DNA of 32,000 nt from Nostoc punctiforme PCC 73102 (GCF_000020025.1 NC_010628.1:4230001-4262000), one strand, 5' to 3'; shown: positions 1 through 30,071, counted from the first letter of the stretch. Notes: generated by a model from the sequence alone, not told the origin. Program-made: numbers and translations.

Positions 1-16
1 ATGATAATCAAATAGT

Positions 17-51
17 GGGGGAGGAGGCAAGCTTCTCTTGCCTTCTCCCCC
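17..51. other. Hairpin with a 15-bp stem and 5-nt loop, nested in a 9-bp outer inverted repeat (1-9 / 65-73)
   Basis: GGGGGAGGAGGCAAG (17-31) and CTTGCCTTCTCCCCC (37-51) are reverse complements with one G:U-type mismatch. ATGATAATC (1-9) pairs with GATTATCAT (65-73). The structure lies at the window edge, so its context is unknown. Confidence 0.5.
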
Positions 52-463
52 TCTCCCCATACACGATTATCATTCTTATTAAGACTATTTTGAGTATTTT
101 AGCTGATTGACAAAAGGCGCTTTATTCTAACCTCTTACGGATGGGCCCAGACTAGTTTTTGCGTAATGCTTCAAGAGAGTACAAAATTAATAACCTAAGT
201 TGCTAGCGATCGCAAAGTACTTTTTTTAAGTACAAAACTTAATTCTTAGTATCTAAACACTACTTAAAAAATAGCTTTTGATACAAAATTAATACTGTTT
301 ATAGGTACTAACTAGCAACTTATGTTAATAGTGTTTGAGGCAGTATAAGACTTATATTTGATTTTTGAGAAACTAAGCTGCCTAGAAGCTTGACACATCA
401 AGCTTTCCTTGTGAGTATAATGAGGAAAATGTAAGATTCCTACGTTAGTGGCTAACTAACAAC

Positions 464-703
464 TTAGTCAAGTCCCAAAGTTGCTAGTGTTATTGTTTTT
501 ATTGTCAAGATAGCTGTTGTTTCTGTTGTTGGTATAGCTGTTGTTGTTGTAGCCGTTACTGTTGTTACTGTTATTATTGTTGAATTGAGTCCACCCTGAA
601 TGCTGAGAGCATCACTTTCAGACAATTGGTCCAAATAGCTTTCGGAATCATCAAATAATTCACTGCCAGTAACGGATAGATTATCAATTTTTATTGTACT
701 CAT
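464..703 (-). CDS. Double-glycine-leader RiPP/bacteriocin precursor (family A) with a Thr-rich, Cys-free core
   Basis: 79 aa. The 38-aa leader MSTIKIDNLSVTGSELFDDSESYLDQLSESDALSIQGG fits the LSxxELxxIxGG pattern. It is paralogous to the leaders of ORFs 1435-1626 and 1800-2021. The 41-aa core has 17 Thr, 1 Ser and 0 Cys. AAGGAGA lies 8 nt upstream of the ATG. Confidence 0.75.
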   Translation of the reverse strand: MSTIKIDNLSVTGSELFDDSESYLDQLSESDALSIQGGLNSTIITVTTVTATTTTAIPTTETTAILTIKTITLATLGLD

Positions 704-1115
704 TGCTTTATCTCCTTTGAAGAATTATTCAGGTTGCATAGGTATTAATTGCTGTATTTACCAATACTTACCTGAAAATATCTATATCTTAAAAGTTAAG
801 ATTAGCAAATTCAATTTACAAAATTACTTTTTGATGACATAATTATTTCATTATTAGCTTAATTTTAAATATAAAAAAAGTTTTTAGACAAATTGAAGAG
901 TTTGCTTTTAATATAAGACATTAACAAGGCTCATCTCTATTATTATGGGTAAAATAATCTAGGAGAAATCCAATTATAAAATTATAGTATATTAAAAAGA
1001 GACAAAACTAATTCATTTATGCGATCGCAAATTTTAAATCTGAGCAAAAACTAGAAAAAAATCAGCCCAAAATCCCTCTTGGACTGAACGATAAAAATTT
1101 AGATTTTGACTTTGT

Positions 1116-1304
1116 TCAAAGTAGTTCACTGTTTGAATTCGCTTCTTTCTGCTCAATATGTTGGCTCTGTTGTTGGCGACCTAGATATGAATCTTTATCG
1201 TTCTTACCTACAATGTATCCAAAGGCTGCACTTCCAATAGCTAGGAACAACAGTAGAACAATGCCTTCGTAACCATTGGGTTGATAAACAGGAGGCTGAC
1301 TCAT
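1116..1304 (-). CDS. Small single-pass membrane protein with a core-peptide-like segment (candidate immunity or leaderless paralogue)
   Basis: 62 aa with a hydrophobic stretch GIVLLLFLAIGSAAFGYIV. LAIGSAAFGYIVGKNDK matches the C-terminus LGLASAALGYAVGRNDR of the adjacent precursor at 10 of 17 positions. It has no double-glycine leader. Confidence 0.5.
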   Translation of the reverse strand: MSQPPVYQPNGYEGIVLLLFLAIGSAAFGYIVGKNDKDSYLGRQQQSQHIEQKEANSNSELL

Positions 1305-1434
1305 AAATTAATTTCCCGTTAATACAACTAAAAATTTACCTTAAATGCAGAGTGAAGGACATGAGTATTAAGACTAAGCCCTTCACTAAATGAACTGAAA
1401 ATTTTTGAATGATCTACAGAGGGATTATAGCTTA

Positions 1435-1626
1435 CTAGCGATCGTTACGACCCACTGCATATCCTAGTGCAGCAGAAGCTAAACCAAGGCTGATAAGTGC
1501 AAAAATGGTGAAACCACCATGAGATGATCCTGCTTGTTCATCAGATAGCTCGTTGAGAAAGCTTTCCTGATCTATAAAAAGAGATGAACCGGCTGGTTTA
1601 ATGTCGCTAATACAAATGGTTGCCAT
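1435..1626 (-). CDS. Double-glycine-leader RiPP/bacteriocin precursor (family A), hydrophobic 25-aa core
   Basis: 63 aa. The leader is MATICISDIKPAGSSLFIDQESFLNELSDEQAGSSHGG and the core is FTIFALISLGLASAALGYAVGRNDR. AAGGAAA lies upstream of the ATG. Confidence 0.75.
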   Translation of the reverse strand: MATICISDIKPAGSSLFIDQESFLNELSDEQAGSSHGGFTIFALISLGLASAALGYAVGRNDR

Positions 1627-1677
1627 GATTGAATTTCCTTTTATTTCAATTAAGCGAAAAGTGGTTTTTGCTGATTG

Positions 1678-1715
1678 CTAAACCTACATATATATAGGAA
1701 ATAATGTAGGTTTAG
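1678..1715 (-). other. Perfect 12-bp stem hairpin between two precursor genes (possible attenuator or processing site)
   Basis: CTAAACCTACAT (1678-1689) and ATGTAGGTTTAG (1704-1715) are exact reverse complements with a 14-nt loop. No clear U-tract follows on the minus strand. Confidence 0.4.
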
Positions 1716-1799
1716 AATAGTCTTGCTAAATCAATCAGACTTTTTAAACTACATACAAATGCTTCTTAACCTGTTCAAAATATTTAGAACAAGCAGAGT

Positions 1800-2021
1800 T
1801 TAGTAGTAGCGACCTTTAATGTAGGAAGCAACAAAAGTAACACCAACAACAGTAAGACCAATGCTTAAACAAGCTCCACTACTAGCTGTAGTGATAACTG
1901 TCCAAATAGCACCACCTTGATTACCTAATTCATCTTCAGTTAAAGACATCAGATAGCTTTCTTGATCGGCAAACAAATCGTAACCGGCTGGGCGTAAATC
2001 GGAAATTTTGATAGTAGCCAT
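1800..2021 (-). CDS. Double-glycine-leader RiPP/bacteriocin precursor (family A), 36-aa Ser/Thr-containing core with one Cys
   Basis: 73 aa. The leader is MATIKISDLRPAGYDLFADQESYLMSLTEDELGNQGG and the core is AIWTVITTASSGACLSIGLTVVGVTFVASYIKGRYY. AAGGAAAG lies upstream of the ATG. Confidence 0.75.
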   Translation of the reverse strand: MATIKISDLRPAGYDLFADQESYLMSLTEDELGNQGGAIWTVITTASSGACLSIGLTVVGVTFVASYIKGRYY

Positions 2022-2301
2022 CAGATGCTTTCCTTTGATTATCTAATTAATTATGCTTAGTAATAATCAGATATTTTCCTGATTTATTACATATTTATTG
2101 TATTTTTTAAATAGCTATAACTCAATACAAAAAACTAATTTAGCTTGACACAATAAAAACATTAATGTCCCATATATAAAATATATTTAGTTGGTATAAA
2201 TTTTTTGTCTTGCTATTTTTAAACCAATAAAATATCTGCCTTTTAAGACAAGAGGCAGATATTGATAAACAATAACAAATTAAACGTAAAATTTAACGAA
2301 A

Positions 2302-3057
2302 TCAAGCATCAGGAGTAGAAGCCGTTCTCTCTTCTAGCCAATTTATGAAGAGAAATTCTAAAATCTGCTCTCTGATTTCACTCAAGTCAGATGGAAACCA
2401 CTTCTCAACTCTAAGGATGTGATAACCAAGTTGAGTTTGAATTGGGCCTACTAATTCACCTACATCAATATCAGCAATAGCATTTGTAATCTCCGGTAAC
2501 AATTCTGTTAAAAACCGAATACCAACAAAAGCACCATTTTCTTTAGACTGCTTACCCTGAGAGTATTCTAAAGCTAATGCACAAAAAGAATCTTTTTTGT
2601 CCCGAAGCGCTTTAGTGATTTTCATTGCTTCTGTCAAATCACGAACAAGGATCTGAGACAAAGCCACCCGCTTATAACTATCCCGGTTATTTATATAATG
2701 ATCGTCCACCGCCACACCGAAAAGATGTTCTTTCAACTTTTGAGATAGCAATGATATGCGAATGATTTCCGACCAATCCTCTACACTAATGCGCTGATGT
2801 GCTAGCCATGCCAGAGTTTCAGATGTTCCCAGCAATTTGTTTTCTTGGCGAAATGTATCGCCTGCTGCTTGTAACTCTTCGTCTGTCACTTTAATATCTA
2901 GCTGTTCGCATAGTTTCAAAGTCAGAATATTTCTTTCAGCAGCAACAGCAATTTCAGCTATTTTGCAAGAATGGCGCAGGTAAGCAAGGATATCTTCATC
3001 ACGTGCAGGTGTAATTTCTGGAAATGTAAGTTTTTCTAAAGAGTGTTGCATGGTCAT
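2302..3057 (-). CDS. Parvulin-type peptidyl-prolyl cis-trans isomerase (PpiC/SurA-like) with an N-terminal helical domain
   Basis: 251 aa. The C-terminal GAFVGIRFLTELLPEITNAIADIDVGELVGPIQTQLGYHILRVEKW resembles the rotamase consensus (G..G.f......pe...a.f.l..Ge..gPv.t..GyHii.v). Confidence 0.7.
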   Translation of the reverse strand: MTMQHSLEKLTFPEITPARDEDILAYLRHSCKIAEIAVAAERNILTLKLCEQLDIKVTDEELQAAGDTFRQENKLLGTSETLAWLAHQRISVEDWSEIIRISLLSQKLKEHLFGVAVDDHYINNRDSYKRVALSQILVRDLTEAMKITKALRDKKDSFCALALEYSQGKQSKENGAFVGIRFLTELLPEITNAIADIDVGELVGPIQTQLGYHILRVEKWFPSDLSEIREQILEFLFINWLEERTASTPDA

Positions 3058-3151
3058 AGTATGTAATTCTGATCAAAATACATAATTTGTATCTTGTTGT
3101 GCAGTTATAGCCAGAAAATATTAACTATTAACTGCCTTGTATTTTTTTGAT

Positions 3152-4168
3152 TTAGGAGCGATAAATCAAGTTTTCTGGCAAAATATTTTTGATAGAAAGT
3201 TGATTGCGGTGTAAATCTCCATACAAATTCAGGTAATTAATTTCGGCAGGCGTAAGTTTGCCTTGCTTGACACTAGAAATGGCTGCATCAATTTCTTCCC
3301 GACGTTGCCATCCAGCCAAGCAAACATCTACACAGTTCTGGCTTAAAGAGTAGCGATATAAATCAGGTACTGAAGGCTGCCAACAATTTTCTGGCAGACC
3401 TTGGGGAGGGTTCCAAAGAGCGCCTGTATGAGAGCCTGTAGATTTAAAAGTAACGATACCTGGTCTATGAGAGTCTTGGGAGTCTAGTTGATTAAACAGT
3501 TGCGATTGAGCAGACTTATGAGCAACATTGTGTCTAACCATTACTACATCTAATAAAGGGCTGTTAGACCATTGTTGAGCCAGATTCATATCATGAAAAG
3601 ATGCTCCGACATAGCGAACAGCTCCCATTTTCTTAAGGCGTTCTGAAATTCCAACTATTTTTTCAATACTACGCTGATATACAGAATTAGCTCCTTTTAA
3701 ATCAGGAGACAGCTGTAAACAATCTTGTAAAGCTGACCCATCCTTAGAACCGATCCAGCCCCAGAAAAACACATCAATATAGTCAATACCTAATTCTACA
3801 AACTGATCGAGCAGTGCTGCGATCGCCATGTCTGGACTTTTAATGTAAGTTACTGTCGCTAGCACTACTTTCTCTCGCACCAAGGAACCACGTCCACACA
3901 TCTGGCGCAGTGCTCCAGCCATTGAGCTATAGATATAATGGTGCAGGTCACTGGAGTAAAAAAAGTAGTTAATTCCTTGGTCAAAGGCGTAAAGCGTATC
4001 CTCACTGGAAATGCTTCCACCACCTCCTAAGCCAAGACAGCTAACTGTTAAGTCAGTTCGCCCTAATTTTCGGTAGAAAGGTAAATCTGATTTTGGGAAT
4101 TTAGCATTTAGAGAATCAACTCCATCTGATTTGATTAAGGATTGTGGCGTAAGATTAGTTATTAGCAT
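3152..4168 (-). CDS. Aldo/keto-reductase-like oxidoreductase
   Basis: 338 aa. The N-terminal YRKLGRTDLTVSCLGLGGG is like the AKR start motif. Later IDYIDVFFWGW and VRYVGASFH resemble AKR TIM-barrel strands. Its ATG overlaps the stop of the upstream HopA1-like gene by 7 nt (ATGCTAA). Confidence 0.6.
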   Translation of the reverse strand: MLITNLTPQSLIKSDGVDSLNAKFPKSDLPFYRKLGRTDLTVSCLGLGGGGSISSEDTLYAFDQGINYFFYSSDLHHYIYSSMAGALRQMCGRGSLVREKVVLATVTYIKSPDMAIAALLDQFVELGIDYIDVFFWGWIGSKDGSALQDCLQLSPDLKGANSVYQRSIEKIVGISERLKKMGAVRYVGASFHDMNLAQQWSNSPLLDVVMVRHNVAHKSAQSQLFNQLDSQDSHRPGIVTFKSTGSHTGALWNPPQGLPENCWQPSVPDLYRYSLSQNCVDVCLAGWQRREEIDAAISSVKQGKLTPAEINYLNLYGDLHRNQLSIKNILPENLIYRS

Positions 4169-5280
4169 TCGTTCAATAACTGATAAATATTTTCCGAGTT
4201 AGCATTCAAGTAGACAGATTGCAAATCAATTCCCGCTAGAGAAAATTGCTCATGGATAGCCTGCATCCGTCCCTCTGGGGAGTCATCTCCTTGATACCAA
4301 GCTTTTAGTAATCCATTCGCCACAATCTGACAACGATTCATCCCAAAACTTTCCTGTTCAGCAAACTTTTTGTCTGGTTCTTCTGCTAACCCTAATCCTG
4401 GTAGAAGCTGCATCGTGAATAAAGGAACCTCTGGCTGAAAATAAGATTTATTTTCTCTATATACAACTTGTAAAACTTCTTTAACTACCTGATAATCCCT
4501 CTTATCAAAATACAAAACCCCTGAATCATGCCGTCCATAATCTTTTGGATTATACAAAACCTTAAAACTAAAAGGAATTGCTAACTTATTCAGTTGCTGT
4601 GTCAGACTCCTCATTACTGTCACAGCACCTTCAGGAGTCAAATTAAAATAGATTCGCACAGTTACTAATGGGTCGTTAGCATCCAGTAAACGAGTAAATC
4701 CTTGATTACCAACTGCCATATAAAAGCCATTTTGTACCCGATTTTTAGGCATCCGAATAGCTACCATATCACCTACTTTAGCGTCTTGGTCAATAGCTTG
4801 AAGATGCTTTTCAGGATGAATATGTAACCTCAAACCACCCTTTGTTACTACTAAACTACCGTCTATTTCTTCTTTAATAACAGACCAACCAAGGTCAAAA
4901 TTGCTGTCTCCACAATTACTTTCATGTAATTGCTCATACAATTCCAAATCTATTCCTAGAAAAGTATTATTTTCCAAATCTATGAGCAAACTATTTTCTT
5001 CTCCATCTAGTGCTAAAGCACTTCGCATAGAACCGTTGTAATATATCCCATAGAGAAAAGCCCGCAATTGCAGACTCAGATATTTCTGTTGCATCTGGGG
5101 TGGCATATTCTGAAAACGTTCAACTATCTCAGATGATAATTCCAAAGGTTTGTAATCTGGATGGTGGATGGAAAAATCAGATTTTATCTCAATTTTTTGA
5201 GCAATATCTTGTAAAACATCCAGTAATTGCCCAGTTAATCCAACCTCTAATTGAGTTTGGGAAGAATTTAATAATTGCAT
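4162..5280 (-). CDS. HopA1-effector-family-like protein (candidate phospho-Ser/Thr lyase partner of the adjacent kinase)
   Basis: 372 aa. Motifs I recall from HopA1-family proteins are present: VRIYFNL, FKVLYNPKDYGRHDSGVLYF, GLAEEP....ESFGMNRC. It is immediately downstream (28-nt gap) of an APH-like kinase, as in known kinase/HopA1-like dehydratase pairs. The assignment is from memory and needs an HMM check. Confidence 0.55.
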   Translation of the reverse strand: MQLLNSSQTQLEVGLTGQLLDVLQDIAQKIEIKSDFSIHHPDYKPLELSSEIVERFQNMPPQMQQKYLSLQLRAFLYGIYYNGSMRSALALDGEENSLLIDLENNTFLGIDLELYEQLHESNCGDSNFDLGWSVIKEEIDGSLVVTKGGLRLHIHPEKHLQAIDQDAKVGDMVAIRMPKNRVQNGFYMAVGNQGFTRLLDANDPLVTVRIYFNLTPEGAVTVMRSLTQQLNKLAIPFSFKVLYNPKDYGRHDSGVLYFDKRDYQVVKEVLQVVYRENKSYFQPEVPLFTMQLLPGLGLAEEPDKKFAEQESFGMNRCQIVANGLLKAWYQGDDSPEGRMQAIHEQFSLAGIDLQSVYLNANSENIYQLLNEC

Positions 5281-5308
5281 AATTTTTATTTAGTAATCAC
5301 AAAATGAT

Positions 5309-6469
5309 TTAAACAGGAGAATTATTTAGATGGCCTAATTCAACAGCAGCAGCACCAAAAATTGTTGGCATCGATTGTACAGGACGGCTTAATAACGTCT
5401 TAGCAACCTGAAGCATAGCAATCCCCATATTGCCAAAAGATTTTTGATATTGAATCATCGCCTGAATTTGTTGAATCAACGTAAAACCCGTAAATTGCAC
5501 TACCCGTTGCAAGAAATCAGAGCGGTGGTCTAGAATTTCTGGAAAAGTCTTCAAATAAGCTTGGGTTAATGTACTAATTGAAGGCTGAAGTACTTCTAAA
5601 GGTGTAATTGCCAAACGTAGAGACTCTTCAATACTCAAAGAATTACTAATAACCAAGCTACCCAACCAGATTTGGACATAGCTGCTAATTAGTGTTCCTA
5701 AATCAAAAGCTGGATCTCCCCAAGCAGAGCGTTCCCAATCTATTAGCCGGACAATATTGTTACTAGAATCTTGCCAATCTTTGTGCAGGAGAATATTATT
5801 TAGTTTTAAATCATTATGGGTGAGACAAGAGGGTGTTACAGCATTGCCCAATTCGGCGATCGCTTGCCCCAAGCTATCATAACGTTGATAGAGAGCAAAA
5901 AACTTTAACCCATCGCTAGGAACTATACCAAAAATTTCCGGTTCAACCCGTTCTAATCTGCGAACTAAATGTAATACTTGATCGCCCATTAAATTATCTG
6001 AATTTTTAGTAAAGAATTCCTGATATTCTTGGCGGTTGAAAGTATCACGATGGATAGTCCCTAAAATATTACCAATTGCCGTAGCGATTTCTATATTAAA
6101 GCTATTTCCCTTGGTATAAAAATCCATTAAATCCCGATAATCATCGAAATATTTAAAGACAATAATGGAATTTTCGACATCAAAATGCAGTACTTCTGGT
6201 AAAAATGAACGGTAGTTGCTAAGGTTTGGAAATTGTTGTAAAAACTCTTGAATTCGCCACTCAATTAAAAATTCACCAGCCGCTTTCCCTTCGGGATTGT
6301 GTCGTTCTTGTTTAACTAAAAGTTTGCGATCGCCTGGTAAAGTCACTAATAAGTTGAAATTCTTGGCTGTAAGTTGTTCTATTTTAGCGGGAGGTTGCTC
6401 GGATTGATTACATAATCCTTTTTCAAGCAAATAATTGAAAACATTCTGTGAATTTAAGATAAATGTCAT
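5309..6469 (-). CDS. Aminoglycoside-phosphotransferase (APH)/MtnK-like kinase-fold protein
   Basis: 386 aa. It has the catalytic-loop-like LTHNDLKLNNILL (HxDxxxxN) and the metal-binding IDWERSAWGDPAFDLG (DWE...GDP..DL) characteristic of the APH/choline-kinase fold. Confidence 0.8.
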   Translation of the reverse strand: MTFILNSQNVFNYLLEKGLCNQSEQPPAKIEQLTAKNFNLLVTLPGDRKLLVKQERHNPEGKAAGEFLIEWRIQEFLQQFPNLSNYRSFLPEVLHFDVENSIIVFKYFDDYRDLMDFYTKGNSFNIEIATAIGNILGTIHRDTFNRQEYQEFFTKNSDNLMGDQVLHLVRRLERVEPEIFGIVPSDGLKFFALYQRYDSLGQAIAELGNAVTPSCLTHNDLKLNNILLHKDWQDSSNNIVRLIDWERSAWGDPAFDLGTLISSYVQIWLGSLVISNSLSIEESLRLAITPLEVLQPSISTLTQAYLKTFPEILDHRSDFLQRVVQFTGFTLIQQIQAMIQYQKSFGNMGIAMLQVAKTLLSRPVQSMPTIFGAAAVELGHLNNSPV

Positions 6470-6482
6470 AGGTCTTAATCAA

Positions 6483-6683
6483 TTAGTTGTAACTTTTGAA
6501 GATACCAGCTTCCTTCTCAATGCGATCTAAAGCCTTCTTTGCTCTAAAAATCAGCCGCAAATAGTTTAACTGACTATTCCAAGCTGAACGAGGTAACAGG
6601 GTTAGTAAAGGCTCTACCTCATTCTGGGATTGTTCAATATGAGTAATATTCGGATCTTCTGGAGGGATAAATTTACTTGACAT
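6483..6683 (-). CDS. Hypothetical 66-aa protein translationally coupled to the rSAM gene
   Basis: Its ATG lies 1 nt after the rSAM stop (TAA T ATG), and its stop is 13 nt before the kinase ATG. I recognise no motif. Confidence 0.45.
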   Translation of the reverse strand: MSSKFIPPEDPNITHIEQSQNEVEPLLTLLPRSAWNSQLNYLRLIFRAKKALDRIEKEAGIFKSYN

Positions 6684-6684
6684 A

Positions 6685-7974
6685 TTATTTATCTGAATGA
6701 GATTTAGAACTAACTAAGGATGAAACTAATGGTTCTTCTTTCCAACCTTCTGGCCATTGAATGCGATCGCTAGTAAAATGAAGTGGATCGTTTTCAGGCC
6801 AAGCGGTATTAATCGGTTCCTCAATCAGAGCAAACTCGCCATTATCAAAGGGATTTCCATCTGCACGACGTTGAAGAAATACTCGCTCTCGAATACCGCC
6901 TTTTTCCTGAGTGAGGGCGCGATGATGGCAGTAAGGATTGTTACCTCGTTTATCAAAGAAAACGTGAGCAGTCCAACTGCAACCACCTCGACAGAGTTCC
7001 GCAAATTCGCAAGACTTGCAGAAACCCCATAAATGTGATGTTCCTTTGGGAGTATCAGCTTCGAGATTGAACCGTAGTTCTTCAGTTTCTTCAATAATTG
7101 TCCGCAGTGAATGGTCACGGATGTTACCACCAGTGTAGGCTGTGGTCGGTAGTGAGGGACAACCTTTGATAGCACCATCGGCTTCAATACCTAAAGCAGA
7201 CAGTCCAGCGCTACATCCCTGCCAAAATGACCAAGCATCTCCACCCCGTAGCAGTCGTTCATAGGGCCCGTAGTAGCCGATGTTATTCCCAGGCTGTATC
7301 TGCACCCCTTCTTCCTTGGCGCGTTCAGCAACACGAGCAATCATTGGGTATATATCCAATAGTTCGTAAGGTTGCAGCAGAATATCACCATTATCAGCAG
7401 CATTGCCCATCGGTACAGTTAACTGAATTTGCCAAGCGAATACTCCAGCGTCGCGGATACGCTCATAAATTTGGGGAAATTCTGGTGCAGACAGACGATT
7501 GATTTGCGTATTGCAGCCGAAAGGGATACCTGCTTCCTTAAGATTGCTCATGGTCTTAAACGCCCATTGCCACGAGCCTTGTTTGCCCCGCAGACGGTCA
7601 TGAGTTGCTTCTAAGCCATCAACCGACACAGAAACCACGCCAATACCAGCTTCTTTCATCCGGCGGGCTGTGTCTAAGGTGATACCATAACCCCCAGTAG
7701 TCATACCACACAACATCCCAGCTTTAGTAATTGCTTGGGCAATCTCTAACCAGTCAGGACGCAGAAATGCTTCACCACCAATTATGGTTACTTCTGTGAT
7801 TCCAACTTCCGCCATTTGTTTGACTAAATCAAGGGCTTCTGCTGTGGAAAGTTCGTTAGCCCTTGTATGACCCGCACGAGAACCGCAGTGTTGACAGGCT
7901 AGATTACACTTGAGTGTAATTTCCCAAACTGCATAACTAATTCGGCGATAAGTCATAAAAATACCCTCAATCAA
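6685..7974 (-). CDS. Radical SAM enzyme with a full SPASM domain (Nif11-class peptide maturase-like)
   Basis: 429 aa. It has the CNLACQHC (CxxxCxxC) cluster at residues 23-30 and the SPASM signature CSAGLSALGIEADGAIKGC ... CKSCEFAELCRGGC (Cx2Cx5Cx3C). An alternative start at 7956 (MTYRR) has a GAGGG Shine-Dalgarno-like motif. Confidence 0.9.
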   Translation of the reverse strand: MIEGIFMTYRRISYAVWEITLKCNLACQHCGSRAGHTRANELSTAEALDLVKQMAEVGITEVTIIGGEAFLRPDWLEIAQAITKAGMLCGMTTGGYGITLDTARRMKEAGIGVVSVSVDGLEATHDRLRGKQGSWQWAFKTMSNLKEAGIPFGCNTQINRLSAPEFPQIYERIRDAGVFAWQIQLTVPMGNAADNGDILLQPYELLDIYPMIARVAERAKEEGVQIQPGNNIGYYGPYERLLRGGDAWSFWQGCSAGLSALGIEADGAIKGCPSLPTTAYTGGNIRDHSLRTIIEETEELRFNLEADTPKGTSHLWGFCKSCEFAELCRGGCSWTAHVFFDKRGNNPYCHHRALTQEKGGIRERVFLQRRADGNPFDNGEFALIEEPINTAWPENDPLHFTSDRIQWPEGWKEEPLVSSLVSSKSHSDK

Positions 7975-8005
7975 TTAATTTTTCTACAAAGGGACGGATA
8001 AATCC

Positions 8006-8131
8006 CTATCTATCCCTAGTTTTAACTATTTGGTTACATTGTTCTTTGCTATTAACGCTTTCAATTTGATGACGAAACGCTTCATCATTTGCTAGATTTT
8101 CGTAGAAAGCTTTGACATTTTTTATGGGCAT
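8006..8131 (-). pseudogene. Truncated Nif11-type leader paralogue (41 codons, no core peptide)
   Basis: My own translation is MPIKNVKAFYENLANDEAFRHQIESVNSKEQCNQIVKTRDR*. This aligns with residues 1-37 of ORF 8288-8620 (MSLEHVKAFYQKLANDEAFSNQIQGVNSKEECSQIVK). It then runs directly into a copy of that gene's 3' hairpin region. AGGAGA lies upstream of the ATG. Confidence 0.6.
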
Positions 8132-8225
8132 AAGATTCTCCTAACCTTGATTAATTAAATATATTTTTTACTTTTATGCATGATTTTTTTATCTGTCATT
8201 TCGATTCTCTTGTGAATTTATAAAA

Positions 8226-8249
8226 GGACGGACAAGTCCCTATCCGTCC
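8226..8249 (-). terminator. Candidate intrinsic terminator/attenuator after the Nif11 precursor gene
   Basis: The minus strand reads GGACGG-ATAGGGACTTGT-CCGTCC followed by TTTTATAAATT. A diverged copy (7989-8016) follows the truncated leader, just upstream of the rSAM gene. Confidence 0.55.
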
Positions 8250-8287
8250 CCAGAATTTTAAACTGTTATGGTCGCAATCCAGGTTCC

Positions 8288-8620
8288 CTAAAGTGTGTCA
8301 TCTACCCGGATAACTCCATACATAAGTTGGTAGGGTGGCCATACAACTCCATATAATGGTTGGATTCTTGGTTTCCCAGTTAATCCACCAAAAACTGCTG
8401 CTAGTTCTTTTTCACTTAAATCTTTGAGTTCACCTTCACCATCGGCAGATTCTAACAATTGAGCGGTATATTCTTCATACTCTTCTAGAGTGAAATCGTA
8501 GCCGGCAGCTTTAACTATTTGGCTACATTCTTCCTTACTATTAACGCCTTGAATTTGATTACTAAACGCTTCATCATTTGCCAGCTTTTGATAAAAAGCT
8601 TTGACGTGTTCTAGAGACAT
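8288..8620 (-). CDS. Nif11-like-leader RiPP precursor with double-glycine cleavage motif
   Basis: 110 aa. The N-terminus MSLEHVKAFYQKLANDEAFSNQIQGVNSKEECSQIVKAAGYDFTLEEYEEY fits the Nif11 leader family. LSEKELAAVFGG is a textbook LSxxELxxIxGG. The core is LTGKPRIQPLYGVVWPPYQLMYGVIRVDDTL. AAGGAG lies upstream. Confidence 0.85.
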   Translation of the reverse strand: MSLEHVKAFYQKLANDEAFSNQIQGVNSKEECSQIVKAAGYDFTLEEYEEYTAQLLESADGEGELKDLSEKELAAVFGGLTGKPRIQPLYGVVWPPYQLMYGVIRVDDTL

Positions 8621-8676
8621 AATTTTCTGCTCCTTGAATTACTTAACAGTTGGTAATTATATTAGAATATTGAACC

Positions 8677-9114
8677 TTAGCCGGCAGCGAGGTTTGACAC
8701 TTCAATGGTTACTTCAGACGGATTGTAGTTATCTGTAATTACTTGCGGACAACGCATACAAGCTGCTTTGCCTTCTTGGTTCCACCACCGACAATCTCGG
8801 CGGATAGAACAAGGAGGCAATTCCTCTGCAACTACGGTTAATTTTCCGGCAATTTGCTTCGCTAGACGACAATCTTCTCCATCAAAATGCAGACAAGCTT
8901 TAGTGGCACAAGGTGCTGCTGTGCGAAAAATTTCAGCAGGTGTAACTGGACTAGCTTTTGCTATCAGTTCATCGGTGATAGGTATGGGTTGCTTGAGATA
9001 AGTTACACGTGGTTCTGCAACTGTTCCACTGATTATGCCGAAAACAACACTATTTTCAGATTCTGGCCTAGCACTGGGGCAAAGTGTAGTTTTATCCACA
9101 ACAATGTCTTCCAT
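8677..9114 (-). CDS. Cys-rich hypothetical protein (145 aa) between two precursor genes
   Basis: It has nine Cys, including APCATKACLHFDGEDCRLA and PPCSIRRDCRWWNQEGKAACMRCP. There is no signal peptide and I recognise no family. Confidence 0.55.
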   Translation of the reverse strand: MEDIVVDKTTLCPSARPESENSVVFGIISGTVAEPRVTYLKQPIPITDELIAKASPVTPAEIFRTAAPCATKACLHFDGEDCRLAKQIAGKLTVVAEELPPCSIRRDCRWWNQEGKAACMRCPQVITDNYNPSEVTIEVSNLAAG

Positions 9115-9258
9115 TAATTGAGCCTCCAGCAGAGAAAGCCTTTATAAATACGAGCTTTCAGTCGAATTGGGATATACCATTCTTAAATCATTCGTGAAAA
9201 ATTATATCCCCGACTTTTTTACGAAATGAGGGATTTTGATACCACAAATTTTCACAAA

Positions 9259-9504
9259 TCAGATAGAATTGTCAACTGCTACGAGTCCTATAGTAATAGG
9301 AGGAATAAAAATCTTACCAAGTATTATGGGAACCAATTTTGATTCTCCACCTGAAACGCTTTTTGCTTCCTCATCAGACATAGATAACAAAGCTTCTTCT
9401 GAATCCAAAACTTCGTTTCGACGTGTGACGGCATTTTTCACAGCATCATCAATCAAATCGTTAACTTCAATTTGACTGTGATACTTTCTTTCTTTAGCTT
9501 CCAT
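9259..9504 (-). CDS. Double-glycine-leader precursor (family C), hydrophobic Pro/Ile-rich core
   Basis: 81 aa. The leader ends LSMSDEEAKSVSGG and the core is ESKLVPIILGKIFIPPITIGLVAVDNSI. GAGGGAAA lies upstream. I prefer this minus-strand reading to the antisense ORF 9236-9475 because of the GG-leader architecture. Confidence 0.6.
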   Translation of the reverse strand: MEAKERKYHSQIEVNDLIDDAVKNAVTRRNEVLDSEEALLSMSDEEAKSVSGGESKLVPIILGKIFIPPITIGLVAVDNSI

Positions 9505-9899
9505 GTTGATTTCCCTCTGATTTTTTAACTATTTTTAGGCAATTGCAATTATTATATTTATCAGTGTAATTGCCTAGGATTTACTCATATTAGTAAATAA
9601 TAAAGCTAATTACTTGATTTTTTACAACTTTAAATTAGACAGAAATAAAACTTTTATGTCACTAAAAAACGATAATCTTTGCTTTGAGTTATCCATCTTT
9701 TTATATATGGGCATATACAAAAGTGTTGAATGTTAAGAAAAATCCGATAAAAATAGCCCAAAATATGACAGGTGAATTCTAGCTCCCGTGTTGAATTTGA
9801 GAGAGCCGCCGCCAACACAGAAACCATGTATCGATCATTTATAGCTGTTCTGCGTGACTTTTGGCGAATACTGCGACGAAAAGATGTTTCTCGTTCTAA

Positions 9900-10811
9900 G
9901 AGGTTGTTTGAAAAGTTCCCAGTTGATTAAAAAAAGCTCTCAGGGCATAAGCTGTAGATACGTATATACAGCACCATTGAGAGCGATGAGTAAAGCATAC
10001 TCTAGTAACCTGACCCAAAGTCAATTCGAGTTAATTGAACCGCTGATCCCTGTGGCTAAATCTGGTGGTCGTCCACGAGAAGTAGAAATCTGGGCAGTGC
10101 TAAACGCCATTTTTTATGTACTGGTTCAAGGCTGCAAGTGGCGAGACCTACCTGAGAATTTCCCGGCATGGCAGACGGTGTATACATATTTCCGTAATTG
10201 GCGTATTGATGGGACGTGGATAGAAATCCATGATCGTCTACGGGCATGGACAAGAGCGGATCATGAGCGATTGCCAAGTCCCTCTGAAGCCATAGTGGAC
10301 AGCCAAAGCGTTGAAACAGCAACTATGATTCATCAAGCCGTCGGCTACGACGCTGCCAAGAAGATCAAGGGACGCAAACGGCATATGACTGTCGATACAT
10401 TGGGTTTGGTGTTGCGCGTACTGGTGACTGCTGCTAATGTACCTGAGCGAGAAGGCGGCAAACAAGTCTTACTAAAAGTTCAACAGATGGGGAGTATGGT
10501 ATCTCGGCTGAACACGGTTTGGGTTGATGGCGGTAGGAACAGCGAGCCATTTATGCGTTGGCTCATGGATTTTTGTCGTTGGATTGTGCAAGTGGTGTTG
10601 CGACCTCAACACCACAAGAAATTTGTTTTGCTTACGAAACGCCCTTGTGGTTGAGCGTACTTTCGGTTGGCTCAACTGGTACCGCCGACTTAGCAAAGAA
10701 TATGAGCAATTACCCGAAACAACTGAGACTTTCATTTACCTTGCTATGATTCGGCTTATGCTCAGACGACTTGCATAATTTTTTACTGGCTTTCACTTTT
10801 CAAACAACCTC
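9900..10811 (+). mobile_element. IS5-family insertion sequence (912 bp) with 17-bp perfect terminal IRs and a TAA target duplication
   Basis: GAGGTTGTTTGAAAAGT (9900-9916) is the exact reverse complement of 10795-10811. TAA flanks both ends (9897-9899 and 10812-10814). Confidence 0.85.
9986..10778 (+). pseudogene. IS5-family DDE transposase, frameshifted near 10640
   Basis: MSKAYSSNLTQSQFELIEPLIP...GRPREV...KWRDLP...AIVDSQSVET...KGRKRHMTVDTLG is typical of IS5 transposases. The C-terminal [22 protein letters not shown] continues in another frame (ORF 10524-10778), consistent with a 1-nt indel in the cgccc run. Confidence 0.8.
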
Positions 10812-11744: not shown

Positions 11745-12335
11745 TTGGTAAAAATGCTGGTACGTCGTAAGAATGAGGATTACAGGTCACGGGAATATCT
11801 TACAGTACGTGAGGTAAATAGCATTCTACGAGGGGCAAAAGTTTACGGGCGGTACAAGGTGAGGAACTATGCCTTGGTACTGTTAATATTTCGCCACGGG
11901 CTGCGGGTGTCGGAGGCTTGCGATTTGCGATGGGATGCGATTTCATTTCTGGATGAGGAGATTTTTATCACGCGCAAAAAAGGGAGTGATAGCGGGGTTC
12001 ATCCGTTGCCTGTGGATGAAATCGAGGCATTGAAACAATTAAAGGAATTAAATATTGGTGGCAATTACGTTTTTATTGGGGAAAGGGGGGAGAGGTTAAC
12101 CCCGGCTGCGGTACAAAGATTGTTGACCAGGTTGGGGGAAGTCGCAGAATTAAACATTAAAATCCACCCGCACCAGTTACGCCATGCTTGCGGTTACTAC
12201 CTTGTGAATGAGGGGCATAGTACTAGATTTATTCAGGAATTTTTAGGACATAGAGATATACGCCACACCGAAAAATATACCAAAGTAAATTCCAAACGTT
12301 TTTCTGGTATCAAGTGGAACACAATTGATGAGTAA
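11745..12335 (+). CDS. Small tyrosine recombinase (FimB/FimE-size, phage-integrase family)
   Basis: 196 aa. It has GLRVSEACDLRW (the Arg I region) and HPHQLRHACGYYLVNEGHSTRFIQEFLGHRDIRHTEKYT (the HxxR ... H ... Y catalytic box), closely resembling the FimB/FimE C-terminus. An ATG alternative start lies at 11754. Confidence 0.85.
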   Translation: MVKMLVRRKNEDYRSREYLTVREVNSILRGAKVYGRYKVRNYALVLLIFRHGLRVSEACDLRWDAISFLDEEIFITRKKGSDSGVHPLPVDEIEALKQLKELNIGGNYVFIGERGERLTPAAVQRLLTRLGEVAELNIKIHPHQLRHACGYYLVNEGHSTRFIQEFLGHRDIRHTEKYTKVNSKRFSGIKWNTIDE

Positions 12336-15308: not shown

Positions 15309-16586
15309 TTACTGGATACAGTTGGGGGTAGCGTCAGGAGTAGCATCGGGATAAAAAGTACGGATACCGCCTTGTCTTCTGACAAATACGGCTTGAAAAG
15401 TTCTATTCTCATCTGTGATGCCCAGAAGACATGCTTGGTTAGTGGTGCTAGTGTTGGGGTTGTTCTTGTAACCTAAAGATGCGTTTGACAAAATTTCTTC
15501 AGCATTGAGGGTGTAAGGATAACCTTTGATAGTAGACTGAGCAGTGCCAGTACCTACCTTCATGACAACACCCATTGTGTAGACTGTGTTGGGAACAACT
15601 TCTTCCCTAAACGTATTATTATTCAGTCGTCCAGCTAAACCCTTATTTTGCAGTTCCACATAACGACCAACAAAATGTAGCCCACCAATAGAGCCTCCTT
15701 GAACTGGTTCTCCACAGAATACATGGTCAAAACCTGCGACATTAAACCAAAGATTGGTTAAATCGTTCAAGAAATCAGTATCTGAAGTACGACCTACTTT
15801 GAGATATCCTCCCACGTATGCTTTGATATTTGCCAAGACAGTAGGGTTATTCTGCATCATAGACTGGAAGCCAGTGCGACTGACAACAGTACCTGGAACG
15901 CTGCAAAGATTGACTACTGCTGTGTCAAAGCTATTGAGGGCTGGGGCGCTCGGTGTAACATCAGCCGGGCTACCATAGGCTAACCCGGATACAGGGTTGT
16001 TGATATCGTCAAACAAAGGTACAGAACCGGCTGGTAGAGAAGGAGAAGTGGAACCGGAAGAACCATAATCATTAATTATGATGTCATCAATGTTGGTTCG
16101 GTTTGCAGTTCCATCAGTCTTACGAATTTCACAGCGAACACTACCAGAGATGTTGGGTGTAAAAGTCGCTGTTTGCAAGGCTGTAGAAGTGGTATTGACA
16201 GTGGAGCCGATTTGTATCCATGAAGAGCCACTGTTAGTTGAACACCAAACACCCCAAGTAGTATTAGCGTCAGTACCAAACTTAGCGTATTTGATAGTAA
16301 TAGAGCCTGCACCTGTAGTGCGATCAAATCGCATCGTCACTCTACCACTATTACGAATGCGGGCAGACTTTGCACCATTTTTTCTGTCAGTGCTGAGATC
16401 ACCAATTAGAGCATCATTCAAATTCCATAAGCCTGTGCTGAGATTAACATCAGCATCTGCATAACTTGTTTTTGTACCACTCTCAAAACCTTCAGAAATT
16501 GTGGTGCTATTTGCACTAGTTACGCAAAGGGTAAGCAGTATAACTGCTCCTGTTGATACTTTTAAAGTGAAAGCTAACTTAGACAT
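15309..16586 (-). CDS. Secreted two-domain protein: N-terminal beta-sandwich-like module plus C-terminal EndoU/XendoU-like ribonuclease domain
   Basis: 425 aa. The signal peptide is MSKLAFTLKVSTGAVILLTLCVTSANS. A Gly/Ser linker GSSGSTSPS separates the domains. AGFDHVFCGEPVQGGSIGGLHFVGRY resembles the XendoU catalytic block (G-F-E-H-V-F-x-G-E ... G-x-H-x-W). Confidence 0.5.
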   Translation of the reverse strand: MSKLAFTLKVSTGAVILLTLCVTSANSTTISEGFESGTKTSYADADVNLSTGLWNLNDALIGDLSTDRKNGAKSARIRNSGRVTMRFDRTTGAGSITIKYAKFGTDANTTWGVWCSTNSGSSWIQIGSTVNTTSTALQTATFTPNISGSVRCEIRKTDGTANRTNIDDIIINDYGSSGSTSPSLPAGSVPLFDDINNPVSGLAYGSPADVTPSAPALNSFDTAVVNLCSVPGTVVSRTGFQSMMQNNPTVLANIKAYVGGYLKVGRTSDTDFLNDLTNLWFNVAGFDHVFCGEPVQGGSIGGLHFVGRYVELQNKGLAGRLNNNTFREEVVPNTVYTMGVVMKVGTGTAQSTIKGYPYTLNAEEILSNASLGYKNNPNTSTTNQACLLGITDENRTFQAVFVRRQGGIRTFYPDATPDATPNCIQ

Positions 16587-22165: not shown

Positions 22166-23333
22166 ATGGCAAAAAAGTACATTGTTGACTTGAATGAAGA
22201 TGAAGTTTCCCAACTGCAATCGATAATTAAGAAAGGTAAGCATAAGGCAAGAACCATAAGCCGTGCAAACATTCTTTTGATGGCTTCCGAAGGAGAAACG
22301 GATCAAGCGATCGCTAGCATAGTTAGAGCGCATGTTGCAACAGTGCAACGAATACGAGAAAAATTTGTCATTGGAGGGTTAGATTTTGCTTTAAAGGATG
22401 AAGTTCATCCACCAAAACATAAAAAATTAGATGAAAAGCAAGAAGCATTTTTGATTGCAACAGCTTGTTCTAATCCGCCAGAAGGAAGAGTGCGTTGGAC
22501 AATGCAATTATTAGCAGATCATTTAGTGAACGTTGGTATCATAGATTCAATCTCAGATGAAACAGTACGTCAAACTTTAAAAAAAATGAAATTAAGCCTT
22601 GGTTGAAAGAACAATGGTGTATTCCTGAAGTTAACGCAGAATATGTTTTCCGAATGGAAGATGTGCTGGATTTATACAATGAGCCTTATGATCCTAAACG
22701 CCCTGTAGTCTGCTTTGATGAACGTCCATACCAATTAGTAGAAGAAGTAAGACTTCCTTTGCCACCACAGCCAGAGCAACCTGAACGTTATGATTTTGAG
22801 TATAAACGTAACGGGACAGTAAATTTATTCGCATGTTTTCAACCCTTGGCTGGATGGCGGCATATCGAAGTTACAGAACGTCGAACTAAAGCCGATTTTG
22901 CTAAACAAATGAAAAATTTAGTAGATGTTTCCTACCGAGATGCCGATGTTATTCGTTTAGTAGTTGATAACTTGAATATTCATACACCCAATGCATTATA
23001 TGAAGTTTTTCCACCAGAAGAAGCACGTCGAATTATTCAAAAGTTAGAGTTTCACTATACTCCTAAACACGCTTCTTGGTGAGCCAGTGCGTTGGGCGGG
23101 TTCCCCGACTTGAAGCAACTGGCGAACCCGAAGGGCTGAATCAGGTAGAAATCGAATTATCTGTTTTATCTCGCCAATGTTTAGAACGGCGTATTCCTAA
23201 TGCAGAAACATTAACTTCTGAGATTGCCGCTTGGGAGAAAAAACGTAATCAGCAAAAAGCTAGTGTTTATTGGGGTTTTCAAACCAAAGATGCTCGCCGA
23301 AAAATGGAGCGTTTATATCCAAATTTAACATAG
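22166..23333 (+). pseudogene. IS630-family transposase, in three frames
   Basis: The HTH part is ORF 22166-22606. The frame changes at an A8 run (22579-22586), giving [15 protein letters not shown]. The DDE part (22603-23082) ends at ...TPKHASW. A 56-nt insertion then separates it from LNQVEIELSVLSRQCL (in ORF 23076-23333). Confidence 0.8.
23080..23135 (+). repeat. 56-nt mini-insertion element inside the IS630 transposase gene
   Basis: The sequence is TGAGCCAGTGCGTTGGGCGGGTTCCCCGACTTGAAGCAACTGGCGAACCCGAAGGG. Deleting 23080-23135 joins TGG to CTGAATCAG in frame (HASW-LNQVEIE). It is related to 24003-24060. Confidence 0.65.
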
Positions 23334-23434
23334 CAAAGTTAGCTTGGCAGACTACTAGTTGGGGTAAATTATGTCCTTCATTTTCTCAAAAGGACTTCAG
23401 AGATTAATTGTGGTTCAGCAATACCTCTGCCAAT

Positions 23435-24872
23435 TTACGAGGGTTCAACGCCACCAGAAACGGGATGAATACGTCCTAAAGCAGTAAGCTTGACAAAAAT
23501 CTTGGTTAATAAAATAGGCTCAGGGGTTTCTGGAAGCATTTTTAACATTTCACGAACATATCGAAGACCACGGTAGTAAGCCTTAAGATCAATAATGCCG
23601 GAGTCGGGATTATGTTGACGAAAATCAGATAGAAGATGATGGGATAAGTTGACCATAAAGAATGCCAAGTTAGCAGCATTAGTCACGGCAGCTTGGCTCA
23701 GGTTCATAAAATCTTCCAATCCCCAAAACTGTTTGTTTGGCATCTCGAAAGTTAAACTCGATTTGAAAGCGCAGTTTGTAGTAGTCGATTGTCTTTTCGT
23801 ATGACAATTTTAGGTCACTAGAAAATAGAATTACATGACTACGAGCATTAGTTTTGAGATTGGTTTTGACTAAAATAACTATATTTAGTGCTTGAGCAAA
23901 TTCCTTGTGAAGGAGAGTGCATTGATAAATATCAGTTTTGATATCCTCGTCAATGGTACTTTTACACAAATATGCGTCAGGTATATTACAATAATCCAGC
24001 TTGTCGCCCTTCGGGTTCAGCAGTCCCCTGCGACGGGAAACCCGTCTTCAGGGCTGCTTCACCGTATTTACGACGAGAGCGACGATTAGGGTCAGGGTTT
24101 TGGTAAGGTATGTATAGTGCCGAATCATGGTGCAATTTGGAAATTATGTGCAAGTTAACAAGACGTGCCATCTGCAAGGCATTATTGTTCCCAAAATGAC
24201 CATCTAAAACTAAGTAAGTTAGGGGGATAAAGTTAGCTATCAACTGGACTAACTCATTAATCATCTTCTTAATTCTTAGTAATTCAGATGTGAGAATTAC
24301 TTCTGTTTTATTTTTGTTCTTACTCCCTTTTGGTCGTCCACGTTTACGTTGAGCTTTAAGTTTTACTTCTGGAGTTGATGATGAGCTATTTTTTTCTACA
24401 TCGCTTTTAATCACCTGTTCTATTAAAATCGGAAATGAGTGTCTTTCTTGAACACTTACTAATGATAATGCAAAAAAAGATAGTCCTGATATCGGTTTAT
24501 TTACTAGACTAGAAAAAAATCTATCCAACCCATAAGTTTTTTTGCCTGCCTTACTGACTACAACTTCATCTCCTGCTAGCAAATATACCTCATTCGCACG
24601 GAACAAATGCTTGCGGAAAAATAGCCAAAACAATGGAGCCCAAGGTATTACTGTATGAAAGAACCTTAACATCGTCCGATAACTACCACCAGTCCTGTCC
24701 AACGAGAAATCCCCAACATCGTGACTCGGCCGCTCATTGCTAACATAGCCAGGATTATCTGGTTTAATTGCTGCATCGTTGTAGCGTTTATCTGCGGCAA
24801 GAGGCACTGTAACAGTGATAGGATGTCGGACATGGGCTGATTGTGGTTTTGAGTTGTCGTTGTGAGAGACAA
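23435..24872 (-). pseudogene. DDE transposase (IS4/IS701-like) split into four overlapping frames
   Basis: It is covered by ORFs 24872-24666, 24807-23986, 23969-23679 and 23743-23435. Motifs include LLAGDEVVVSKAGKKTYGLDRFFSS, YLVLDGHFGNNNA and YKLRFQIEFNFRDAKQ. Confidence 0.7.
24003..24060 (-). repeat. 58-nt mini-insertion element inside the IS4/IS701-like transposase gene
   Basis: The minus strand reads GAAGCAGCCCTGAAGACGGGTTTCCCGTCGCAGGGGACTGCTGAACCCGAAGGGCGAC. Deleting 24003-24060 fuses RRKYG to KLDYCNIPDAYLCKSTIDEDI in frame. It shares CGGGTT.CCCG.C......ACTG..GAACCCGAAGGG with 23080-23135. Confidence 0.6.
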
Positions 24873-24992
24873 TAACTCTACTACATCAGCCCTCTCTCTT
24901 CATCCTCTTATTTTGGCTAAGGTATTGGTTCAGTATAAGGCTTTCCGTATATATGCCGAATGGCACGCTTGAAAAGCCGAAACACTTGCGGT

Positions 24993-28390: not shown

Positions 28391-28427
28391 AATAACCTGG
28401 TTTAGATTTCAGAAGTGAGGCAAAGGA

Positions 28428-29207: not shown

Positions 29208-29282
29208 GAATAAAACAGCCCGATAGAGAGCCTTTGGTAGGCATTCTTCCTTATAGTTAAAACCTCTTACTAATCAGTAGCG

Positions 29283-29510: not shown

Positions 29511-29594
29511 AATTTATCTCCTGCGATTTGCCTTGTACGATGTTAATTTAGTTCTTGTATTCTTATTTTCTCATTTTATGACTCACTTCTTTTG

Positions 29595-29942: not shown

Positions 29943-30071
29943 GAGTTGGTCTATTTACCTTTAATAGGTATTTTTATAAACTGACTGCAATATTGAAGGT
30001 TGTATATTTGTCACAGTCTTGATTTTATGCTCTACCATCTAATGAATTGGCTTTCCCCAGATTCTGAACCT

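Follow-up and report, generated by a model that had tools for sequence, protein, structure and literature searches.

The 32,000-nucleotide stretch of the Nostoc punctiforme PCC 73102 genome analyzed here (GCF_000020025.1, NC_010628.1:4230001-4262000; hereafter the window) carries, side by side, a gene for an APH-fold kinase and a gene for a HopA1-like protein, which raises the question of whether the two form a split Ser/Thr dehydratase and, if so, which peptides it modifies and into what. An earlier reading based on the sequence alone (the sequence-only reading) had proposed such a dehydratase, working without a cyclase, on the model of actinobacterial pathways. Both open reading frames (ORFs) it named were found on the minus strand, and the cyanobacterial setting it recognized agrees with the best homologues, which come from Nostoc and other Nostocales (65-98% identity). 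We favor, with a probability of about 0.68, the interpretation that the pair is a LanK/LanY-type two-component Ser/Thr dehydratase acting on double-glycine (GG) leader peptides, which are exported via a C39 transporter.

The assignment of the HopA1-like gene to its family was borne out by Pfam, as the ORF matched PF17914 over residues 177-358 with the whole profile covered (E 5.6e-63; 212 bits, cutoff 22.7). Comparison with class V lanthipeptide lyases was likewise significant: a phmmer search of the PDB returned LxmY (9dk1_B) as the sole meaningful relative, with the catalytic block aligned (E 1.5e-7). Chain B of entries 9DK1-3 is the LxmY subunit of the lexapeptide dehydratase LxmKY (PMC12141560). 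Residues R209, K240, R250, and Y257 of the Nostoc protein align opposite the LxmY equivalents of CaoY R187, K219, R229, and Y236, and the spacing from the lysine to the arginine (+10) and to the tyrosine (+17) is identical to that in CaoY. In CaoY, phosphate elimination is abolished by K219A, nearly abolished by R187A, and impaired by R229Q, while Y236 was never mutated and its role was deduced from Tyr158 of SpvC (PMC9486802). Each of the four residues is at least 99% conserved among 121 cyanobacterial sequences. The AlphaFold2 model of the lyase (predicted local distance difference test, pLDDT, 76) corresponds to full-length LxmY, whose three chains (9dk1/2/3_B) were the top Foldseek matches (E 3.6e-16; template modeling score 0.64-0.77; 304-365 aligned columns), followed by P. 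syringae HopA1, the lyase domains of the class III/IV synthetases CuvL and ThurKC, and OspF. The family is large: the lyase has 1,439 close homologues, many genomes contain several copies, and a full-library search gave 2,821 HopA1-family representatives. The ORF is a homologue of LanY-type lyases, and its residues and modeled fold predict elimination activity.

For the kinase, a match to the Pfam family APH (E 1.5e-11) was complemented by a more specific one: the best NCBIfam model was NF038156, LxmK, the class V lanthionine synthetase subunit (E 4.7e-24, residues 28-369), while the runner-up family reached 22 bits. The three best fold matches to the low-confidence kinase model (pLDDT 53) were LxmK chains (9dk1-3_A; E 3e-5 to 2e-4), with aminoglycoside kinases after them. 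The kinase motifs named in the sequence-only reading, H218-x-D220-xxxx-N225 and D244-W-E...G251-D-P..D256-L, are present and invariant or nearly so in 35 homologues, in which the beta-3 lysine K53 and residues D220, N225, and D244 are invariant.

The two genes belong together across the cyanobacteria. In the window, 28 nt separate the kinase gene from the lyase gene, and among 80 loci surveyed in different species of cyanobacteria, 78-79 have a kinase orthologue directly upstream of HopA1; the others lie at contig ends. Some relatives have joined both functions in single chains of 760-830 aa, with the APH part N-terminal and the HopA1 part C-terminal (P0256, P0258, P0280, and P0293 among them). 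One of these, P0256, comes from the cyanobacterium Oculatella sp. LEGE 06141, and in its N-terminal half P0258 shares 51% identity with the kinase family of the window (hhalign E 5e-101). HopA1-LanC fusions also occur (P0351, P0359, P0360, and P0386 are listed with the fusions). The proposed split dehydratase has thus gained LanK/LanY homology, conserved catalytic residues, an LxmY fold, adjacency, and fusions, while its activity and its substrate are what we infer from them.

Candidate substrates lie downstream of the pair. A leader hidden Markov model (HMM) built from three peptides of the window (1800-2021, 1435-1626, and 464-703) detected 193 peptides, which come from 75 of 81 sources (the 80 loci plus the window), with a median of 2 and a maximum of 6 per locus, and Gly-Gly ends 167 of the 172 full-length leader matches. 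The unique cores behind these leaders are hypervariable, with 11.5% Thr and 7.7% Ser, and 90 of 159 lack Cys. That the most obvious substrate is devoid of Cys, as the sequence-only reading had remarked, holds for the 464-703 core, which consists of Thr to about one half; the 1435-1626 core has no Cys either, the 1800-2021 core has one, and none of the three ends in Cys. Orthologues of the 1800-2021 peptide are present in the closest locus, L001 from Nostoc sp. NMS8 (88% identity), and in L011, and cores similar to the Thr/Pro-rich 464-703 core were found in L030, L013, and L051.

Many cores start in a similar way. A hydrophobic residue followed by Ser/Thr and Pro (ITP, LTP, ISP, FTP, etc.) directly after Gly-Gly was observed in 41 of 154 unique cores and in 22 of 112 after de-replication, where about 1% would be expected from composition. 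Of the cores, 36% have Ser or Thr at position +2, and 30% have Pro at position +3. Such cores include the 1435-1626 core and those of L002-L004, L007, L009, L017, L021, L022, L025, L027, L036, L037, L042, L043, L046, L048, L050, L053, L054, L060, L067, and others.

The arrangement of the peptide genes was conspicuous as well. In L001, two core types alternate in tandem as A-B-A-B-A-B (1800-type and 1435-type, three times), and tandem core pairs, both types being long, hydrophobic, and rich in Gly/Ala, also occur elsewhere (L001 13262-15432, L002 13179-14600, L003, and L063). This alternation resembles two-peptide bacteriocins, with the 1800-2021 and 1435-1626 genes of the window as one A-B pair. 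Between the 1435-1626 and 464-703 genes lies a leaderless ORF that is an uncertain part of the set. Its motif ...SAAFGYIVGKNDK is shared with ...SAALGYAVGRNDR of 1435-1626, it contains ...LAIGSAAFGYIVGKNDKD..., which is similar to ...LGLASAALGYAVGRNDR of the 1435-1626 core, and only L001 and L011 yielded homologues. The ORF could have arisen by decay of a precursor copy, or it could encode a membrane peptide of the immunity type.

Clustering the complete ORF set of the 80 loci de novo revealed partner genes. On the opposite strand, the pair is accompanied by a PpiC/SurA protein (70 loci), HlyD (67), an ABC transporter with a cyclic-nucleotide (cNMP)-binding domain and a C39 peptidase (66), and a helix-turn-helix protein (56), so that the SurA/HlyD/C39-ABC set is found in 66-70 of the 80. 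In L001 the set follows immediately after the peptide genes. The window stops 463 nt past its last peptide gene, which places the equivalent position beyond coordinate 1 and the set outside the window.

Taken as a pathway, the kinase would use ATP to phosphorylate Ser/Thr in the cores of the 1800-2021, 1435-1626, and 464-703 precursors, guided by their leaders, and the lyase, probably as a heterodimer with the kinase, would remove the phosphate by beta-elimination. K240 would take the alpha-proton, assisted by R209, R250, and Y257, to give dehydroalanine (Dha) and dehydrobutyrine (Dhb), and the C39-peptidase ABC transporter with HlyD would cut after Gly-Gly and export the peptides. The products are probably Dhb/Dha-containing, mostly linear, hydrophobic, bacteriocin-like peptides rather than lanthipeptides. 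We expect mostly linear dehydropeptides because LanC, LanX, and LanD are all missing from the locus and Cys occurs in only one of the three cores. Pfam searches of the 31 main ORFs of the window, on both sides of the cluster, detected no LanC, no second APH protein (LanX), and no HFCD flavoprotein (LanD). The absence of a cyclase claimed by the sequence-only reading therefore stands for the window, but not for the family, since a LanM adjoins the pair in 8 of the 80 loci. A full-length LanM (DUF4135 plus LANC_like) was seen beside the pair in L045, L047, L055, L065, L066, L074, L076, and L080, which stem from Moorena and some Nostoc and Calothrix. The peptides with the same leader carry Cys-rich cores there, e.g., SECPSPFPTSHPGNCPTGTEVF, and LanM and the kinase/HopA1 pair appear to be two dehydratase systems that use one leader type.

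The sequence-only reading had regarded kinase/HopA1 systems as actinobacterial, which is out of date, as a cyanobacterial clade has already been catalogued (PMC8153245, PMC9486802, PMC3140520). Wang et al. (2011) described 'group II' clusters as the SurA/HlyD/long C39-ABC set with extra modification genes (PMC3140520). Eyles et al. (2021) found a phosphotransferase adjoining 96% of 1,340 HopA1 proteins, and their Family 1A, with 570 peptides from 183 biosynthetic gene clusters exclusively in Cyanobacteria, is the largest family of HopA1/phosphotransferase ribosomally synthesized, post-translationally modified peptides (RiPPs); its leaders are of the GG type, and its variable cores show no conservation of Ser/Thr/Cys (PMC8153245). 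Co-occurrence with peptidyl-prolyl isomerase and with aldo/keto reductase (AKR) is already recorded in columns of that study's supplementary table, and the same leader type appears in its peptide list (PMC8153245). The cyanobacterial precursors were later named 'type-B' by Liang et al. (2022) (PMC9486802). The pair is not new, and the window is a further example of these group II = Family 1A = type-B clusters. Its leaders are of the same type (M-A-x-I-x-I-S-D-L-x-P-A-G-x-x-L-F-x-D-x-E-S-Y-L...GG), three GG-leader precursors lie beside the pair (leader HMM E 1e-17 to 3e-18), and the kinase-HopA1 pair, the multiple hypervariable cores, and, as seen in relatives, the SurA/HlyD/long C39-ABC set all match. 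Nothing essential differs; the window adds the optional AKR-like/PpiC and Nif11/radical S-adenosylmethionine (rSAM) modules and, upstream, transposases. Novelty as an actinobacterial system first seen in a cyanobacterium is not supported.

Comparison with characterized systems shows which chemistry is shared and which is not. Phosphorylation followed by elimination was demonstrated in vitro for CaoK/CaoY and LxmK/LxmY (PMC9486802, PMC12141560), which likewise are a separate APH-fold kinase and HopA1-family lyase encoded side by side and share the R/K/R/Y residues of the lyase with identical spacing; identity between LxmK/LxmY and the pair of the window is 15-22%. In contrast to the lexapeptide and cacaoidin clusters, the cluster studied here lacks LanX, LanD, LanJ(F420), and the methyltransferase, its leader is a double-glycine leader processed by a C39 ABC transporter and not the actinobacterial type-A, and most family cores are free of Cys; lanthionine or aminovinyl-cysteine thus cannot be the defining product. 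With one APH protein, no flavoprotein, and no core ending in Cys, the window does not belong to class Va, and with no LANC_like domain in the window, the Cys-free majority of the cores, and LanM limited to 8 of 80 loci, it does not belong to class Vb either. A phosphotransferase and a HopA1-like lyase that yield Dha/Dhb are also found in thioamitide pathways (TvaC/TvaD, TsaC/TsaD, ThoC/ThoD) and in the kintamdin pathway (KinD/KinC). Kintamdin carries Dhb in place of several N-terminal Thr residues. These pathways add YcaO/TfuA thioamidation, an HFCD decarboxylase, and rings of the aminovinyl-methylcysteine type, and the genes for them are not in the window. The same two-step phosphorylation and beta-elimination is carried out by the class III/IV enzymes LanKC and LanL, with lyase, kinase, and cyclase in one polypeptide as opposed to the separate proteins here, and by OspF/SpvC, and their fold matches were the weaker ones (CuvL, ThurKC, OspF). 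LanY-family lyases have other residues where OspF has its catalytic Lys/His pair (PMC9486802).

The coordinates of all features are compiled in Table 1. The minus strand from about 9504 to 464 is a densely packed row of genes.

Table 1. Features in the window, with positions counted from its first nucleotide.
Feature	Position	Strand	Remarks
Lyase ORF	4162-5280	(-)	372 aa; HopA1 family, LanY-like predicted phosphoSer/phosphoThr lyase
Kinase ORF	5309-6469	(-)	386 aa; APH fold, LanK-like predicted peptide Ser/Thr kinase
Precursor peptide, Family-1A GG leader	1800-2021	(-)	core AIWTVITTASSGACLSIGLTVVGVTFVASYIKGRYY; leader HMM E 1.1e-18
Precursor peptide, Family-1A GG leader	1435-1626	(-)	core FTIFALISLGLASAALGYAVGRNDR; leader HMM E 1.1e-17
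Precursor peptide, Family-1A GG leader	464-703	(-)	Thr-rich, Cys-free core; leader HMM E 3.4e-18
Leaderless ORF	1116-1304	(-)	62 aa; related to the 1435-1626 core
PpiC/parvulin-domain protein, in-operon	2302-3057	(-)	251 aa; Pfam Rotamase
AKR-fold protein, divergent	3152-4168	(-)	weak PF00248 match; overlaps the lyase gene
Conserved ORF	6483-6683	(-)	66 aa; upstream module
rSAM/SPASM protein, TIGR04103	6685-7974	(-)	rSAM_nif11_3, 832 bits, cutoff 725
Nif11 fragment	8006-8131	(-)	41 aa; upstream module
Nif11 precursor	8288-8620	(-)	Nif11 leader E 1.5e-15
8-Cys protein	8677-9114	(-)	145 aa; upstream module
Second GG-leader peptide	9259-9504	(-)	81 aa; upstream module
Mobile elements	9854-10654, 11745-12335, 15309-16586, 22166-25893		upstream of the cluster
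Separate, unrelated gene row	26267-31918	(-)	includes a canonical AKR, 30072-31082

Two proteins encoded between the lyase and the peptides, an AKR-like protein and a PpiC-domain protein, could in principle act on dehydro residues, as the sequence-only reading had suggested for the AKR; this suggestion is weakened by the loss of three of the four canonical catalytic residues. The match to PF00248 is weak (E 9e-7), and alignment of the family profile with Kv-beta2 and the canonical AKR of the window, which spans the N-terminal half only, shows the tetrad's Asp, Lys, and His replaced by F70, V106, and G137, which do not vary within the family, with Tyr80 alone retained. A standard hydride-transfer role is not supported because of these replacements, and the protein was rejected as a candidate LanJ-type Dhb reductase for want of the catalytic tetrad. 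The family comprises 580 homologues with 74-90% identity among the top 120, from cyanobacteria only among the matches listed, and has further invariant residues (D74, H76, H77, K110, H192, D193, H213, N214, and H217), which hint, as far as an alignment can tell, at a different active site. Its gene overlaps the HopA1 stop codon by 7 nt, within ATGCTAA, and it also overlaps this stop in L082 and L083; judged from these overlaps, translational coupling of the two genes is predicted for the window as well as for Chroococcidiopsis and Rivularia.

The AKR-like gene was found in 14-15 of the 80 loci, each time together with the in-operon PpiC. This PpiC matches Pfam Rotamase (E 3.9e-14) and, with 67 bits and under the cutoff, the 'peptide maturation system' model TIGR04500. 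Its orthologues (60-89% identity) sit after the AKR-like gene, and the transporter-linked SurA is distinct from it (about 30% identical); of the PpiC copies, only the second, in-operon one co-varies with the AKR-like gene. Loci with this module have longer cores (median 33 versus 22 aa), and 46% of their cores start with x-[ST]-P, compared to 18% in loci without it. A parvulin stands beside both an S/T-P motif and a Ser/Thr kinase, and a link between them is suggestive. A role of PpiC as a Pin1-like phosphoSer/Thr-Pro isomerase tied to the kinase was downgraded, as SurA/PpiC also accompanies transporter-only 'group I' clusters (PMC3140520).

Upstream of the kinase, further optional modules were found, always on the same strand where present. 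Besides the second GG-leader peptide (37-40 of 80 loci) and the 8-Cys protein (41-43), these comprise the Nif11 precursor (25-26) and the TIGR04103 rSAM (26-30). The rSAM, which the sequence-only reading had also considered as a consumer of dehydro residues, is indeed part of the locus, but it belongs to a separate Nif11-precursor cassette that occurs only in a minority of the loci. Repeated motifs are common to the Nif11 cores (QP-LYGV(I/V)-WPP...YQ(L/P)-(L/M)YGVI) and may be the site of rSAM cross-linking; the chemistry of TIGR04103 maturases was not found in the literature searched. The 8006-8131 ORF is a shortened copy of the Nif11 leader domain (MPIKNVKAFYENLANDEAFRHQIESVNSKEQCNQIV...) and probably a decayed second precursor, because L001 carries two full Nif11 genes at this position. 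The 81-aa peptide always precedes the 8-Cys protein, and this pair is found in about half of the kinase/HopA1 loci. The peptide represents a second GG leader family (EINDLIDDAVNNAVARRN...LSDEEAxNVAGG) with a variable core that ends in a PIxxG(L/I)IA-like motif. Its partner has eight conserved Cys, its conserved blocks include CPSARPE, CATKxCQHFDGxDCRLA, LPPCSIRRDCRWW, and ACMRCPQVITDNYN, and it matched nothing in Pfam or NCBIfam.

Several observations weigh against a peptide dehydratase of this kind. With 85 bits, the kinase scores far under the LxmK equivalog cutoff of 315, LxmK was not retrieved by the kinase in sequence and profile searches of the PDB, and the AlphaFold2 model of the kinase is poor. 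Ser or Thr occurs in 158 of the 159 unique cores; at least one such residue in a peptide of about 27 residues is close to chance expectation, and the figure is therefore not treated as strong evidence. Nor are the positions of Ser/Thr conserved across the family, as Eyles et al. noted. The single Cys of the 1800-2021 core could still form a thioether non-enzymatically, the Nif11 precursor and the 81-aa GG peptide of the same operon could be substrates as well, and no characterized product, activity, or function of a cyanobacterial member was found in the literature searched. An explanation that keeps the dehydratase and changes the product is that the dehydro residues are intermediates consumed by other proteins of the locus, so that the mature peptides contain few or none. 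The routes would be reduction to D-amino acids by the AKR-fold protein in the manner of LanJ, or isomerization or cross-linking at hydrophobic-Ser/Thr-Pro linked to PpiC. LanJ enzymes do reduce Dha/Dhb in class V and class II pathways (PMC9486802, PMC11519912). The gene overlap in three genomes, the recurrence of AKR-like and PpiC genes as a sub-module, and its association with longer cores and x-[ST]-P starts all fit this idea. However, with Phe, Val, and Gly in place of Asp, Lys, and His, a standard NAD(P)H hydride-transfer site is doubtful, no LanJ is, to our knowledge, an AKR, and PpiC/SurA is shared with the group I clusters, which have no kinase or lyase. The AKR-like gene is also absent from about 80% of the kinase/HopA1 loci and therefore cannot be core chemistry. 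We regard such consumption of the dehydro residues as unlikely, though it is the strongest of the alternatives.

The substrates themselves might instead be the upstream Nif11 precursor and/or the 81-aa GG peptide, modified jointly with the rSAM maturase. One strand, tight spacing, and a fixed order (peptide, Cys-rich protein, Nif11, rSAM, 66-aa ORF, kinase, HopA1) speak for such a joint operation, as does Ser/Thr at +2 in both upstream cores (LTGKP... and ESKLV...). Against this, each upstream peptide is confined to half of the loci or fewer, compared to the Family-1A peptides in 75 of 81 sources, and the TIGR04103 rSAM and Nif11 are defined as a maturase/precursor pair of their own, which renders the upstream peptides very improbable as the true substrates. 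Still less credible is a pair with no part in peptide maturation, in which the kinase acts on a small molecule or a cellular protein and the HopA1-like protein acts on phosphoproteins, as an effector or regulator, or has no lyase activity. APH-family kinases act mostly on small molecules, HopA1 is a type III effector, and weak matches of the kinase to choline, thiamine, and methylthioribose (MTR) kinases were indeed obtained; but the nearest relatives by family and by fold are LxmK/LxmY and not small-molecule kinases, GG-leader peptides and a C39 exporter accompany the pair almost everywhere, relatives are fused to LanC, and defence-system models (PADLOC) gave no match. A LanK/LanY-type dehydratase for the GG-leader peptides remains our preferred explanation. 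A further-reaching and more tentative proposal, which we would not bet on at even odds, is that the kinase/HopA1 clusters constitute a non-lanthipeptide RiPP class of exported, mostly linear, hydrophobic Dhb/Dha peptides, sometimes two-peptide sets, with a sub-type, represented by the window, that would be tailored by the AKR-fold protein and the parvulin at the N-terminal hydrophobic-Ser/Thr-Pro; the 464-703 precursor would then yield a poly-Dhb peptide. A phosphoThr-Pro- or Dhb-Pro-specific isomerase or reductase step is one possibility for this tailoring.

Regarding the wider surroundings, the cluster is bordered upstream by mobile elements. An IS4/5-family transposase adjoins the first peptide gene, and a phage-type integrase, three more DDE transposase ORFs, and a protein with a bacterial EndoU nuclease toxin domain are also present. 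The upstream side of L001 is instead occupied by a methyltransferase and housekeeping genes. The separate row at the far end of the window encodes a penicillin-amidase family protein (707 aa), a type II thioesterase, the canonical AKR (E 1e-80), and an S-adenosylmethionine methyltransferase, and may mark the border of a further secondary-metabolite locus. Scans of positions 1-10000 for promoters and terminators gave no more than shuffled sequence would and do not enter the interpretation.

The window adds no new principle to what is catalogued; its value is that of a well-equipped example, with three diverse cores and both the AKR-like/PpiC and the Nif11/rSAM modules. New details are the loss of three of the four canonical catalytic residues in the AKR-like protein, the hydrophobic-Ser/Thr-Pro motif in about a quarter of the cores, and the association of the AKR-like/PpiC module with longer cores. 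Kinase/HopA1 clusters are among the commonest RiPP-like loci in filamentous cyanobacteria. If the pair does dehydrate Cys-free GG-leader peptides, peptide engineering would gain a dehydratase that is guided by a leader and needs no cyclase, and these clusters would stand for a large family of dehydropeptides without lanthionine.

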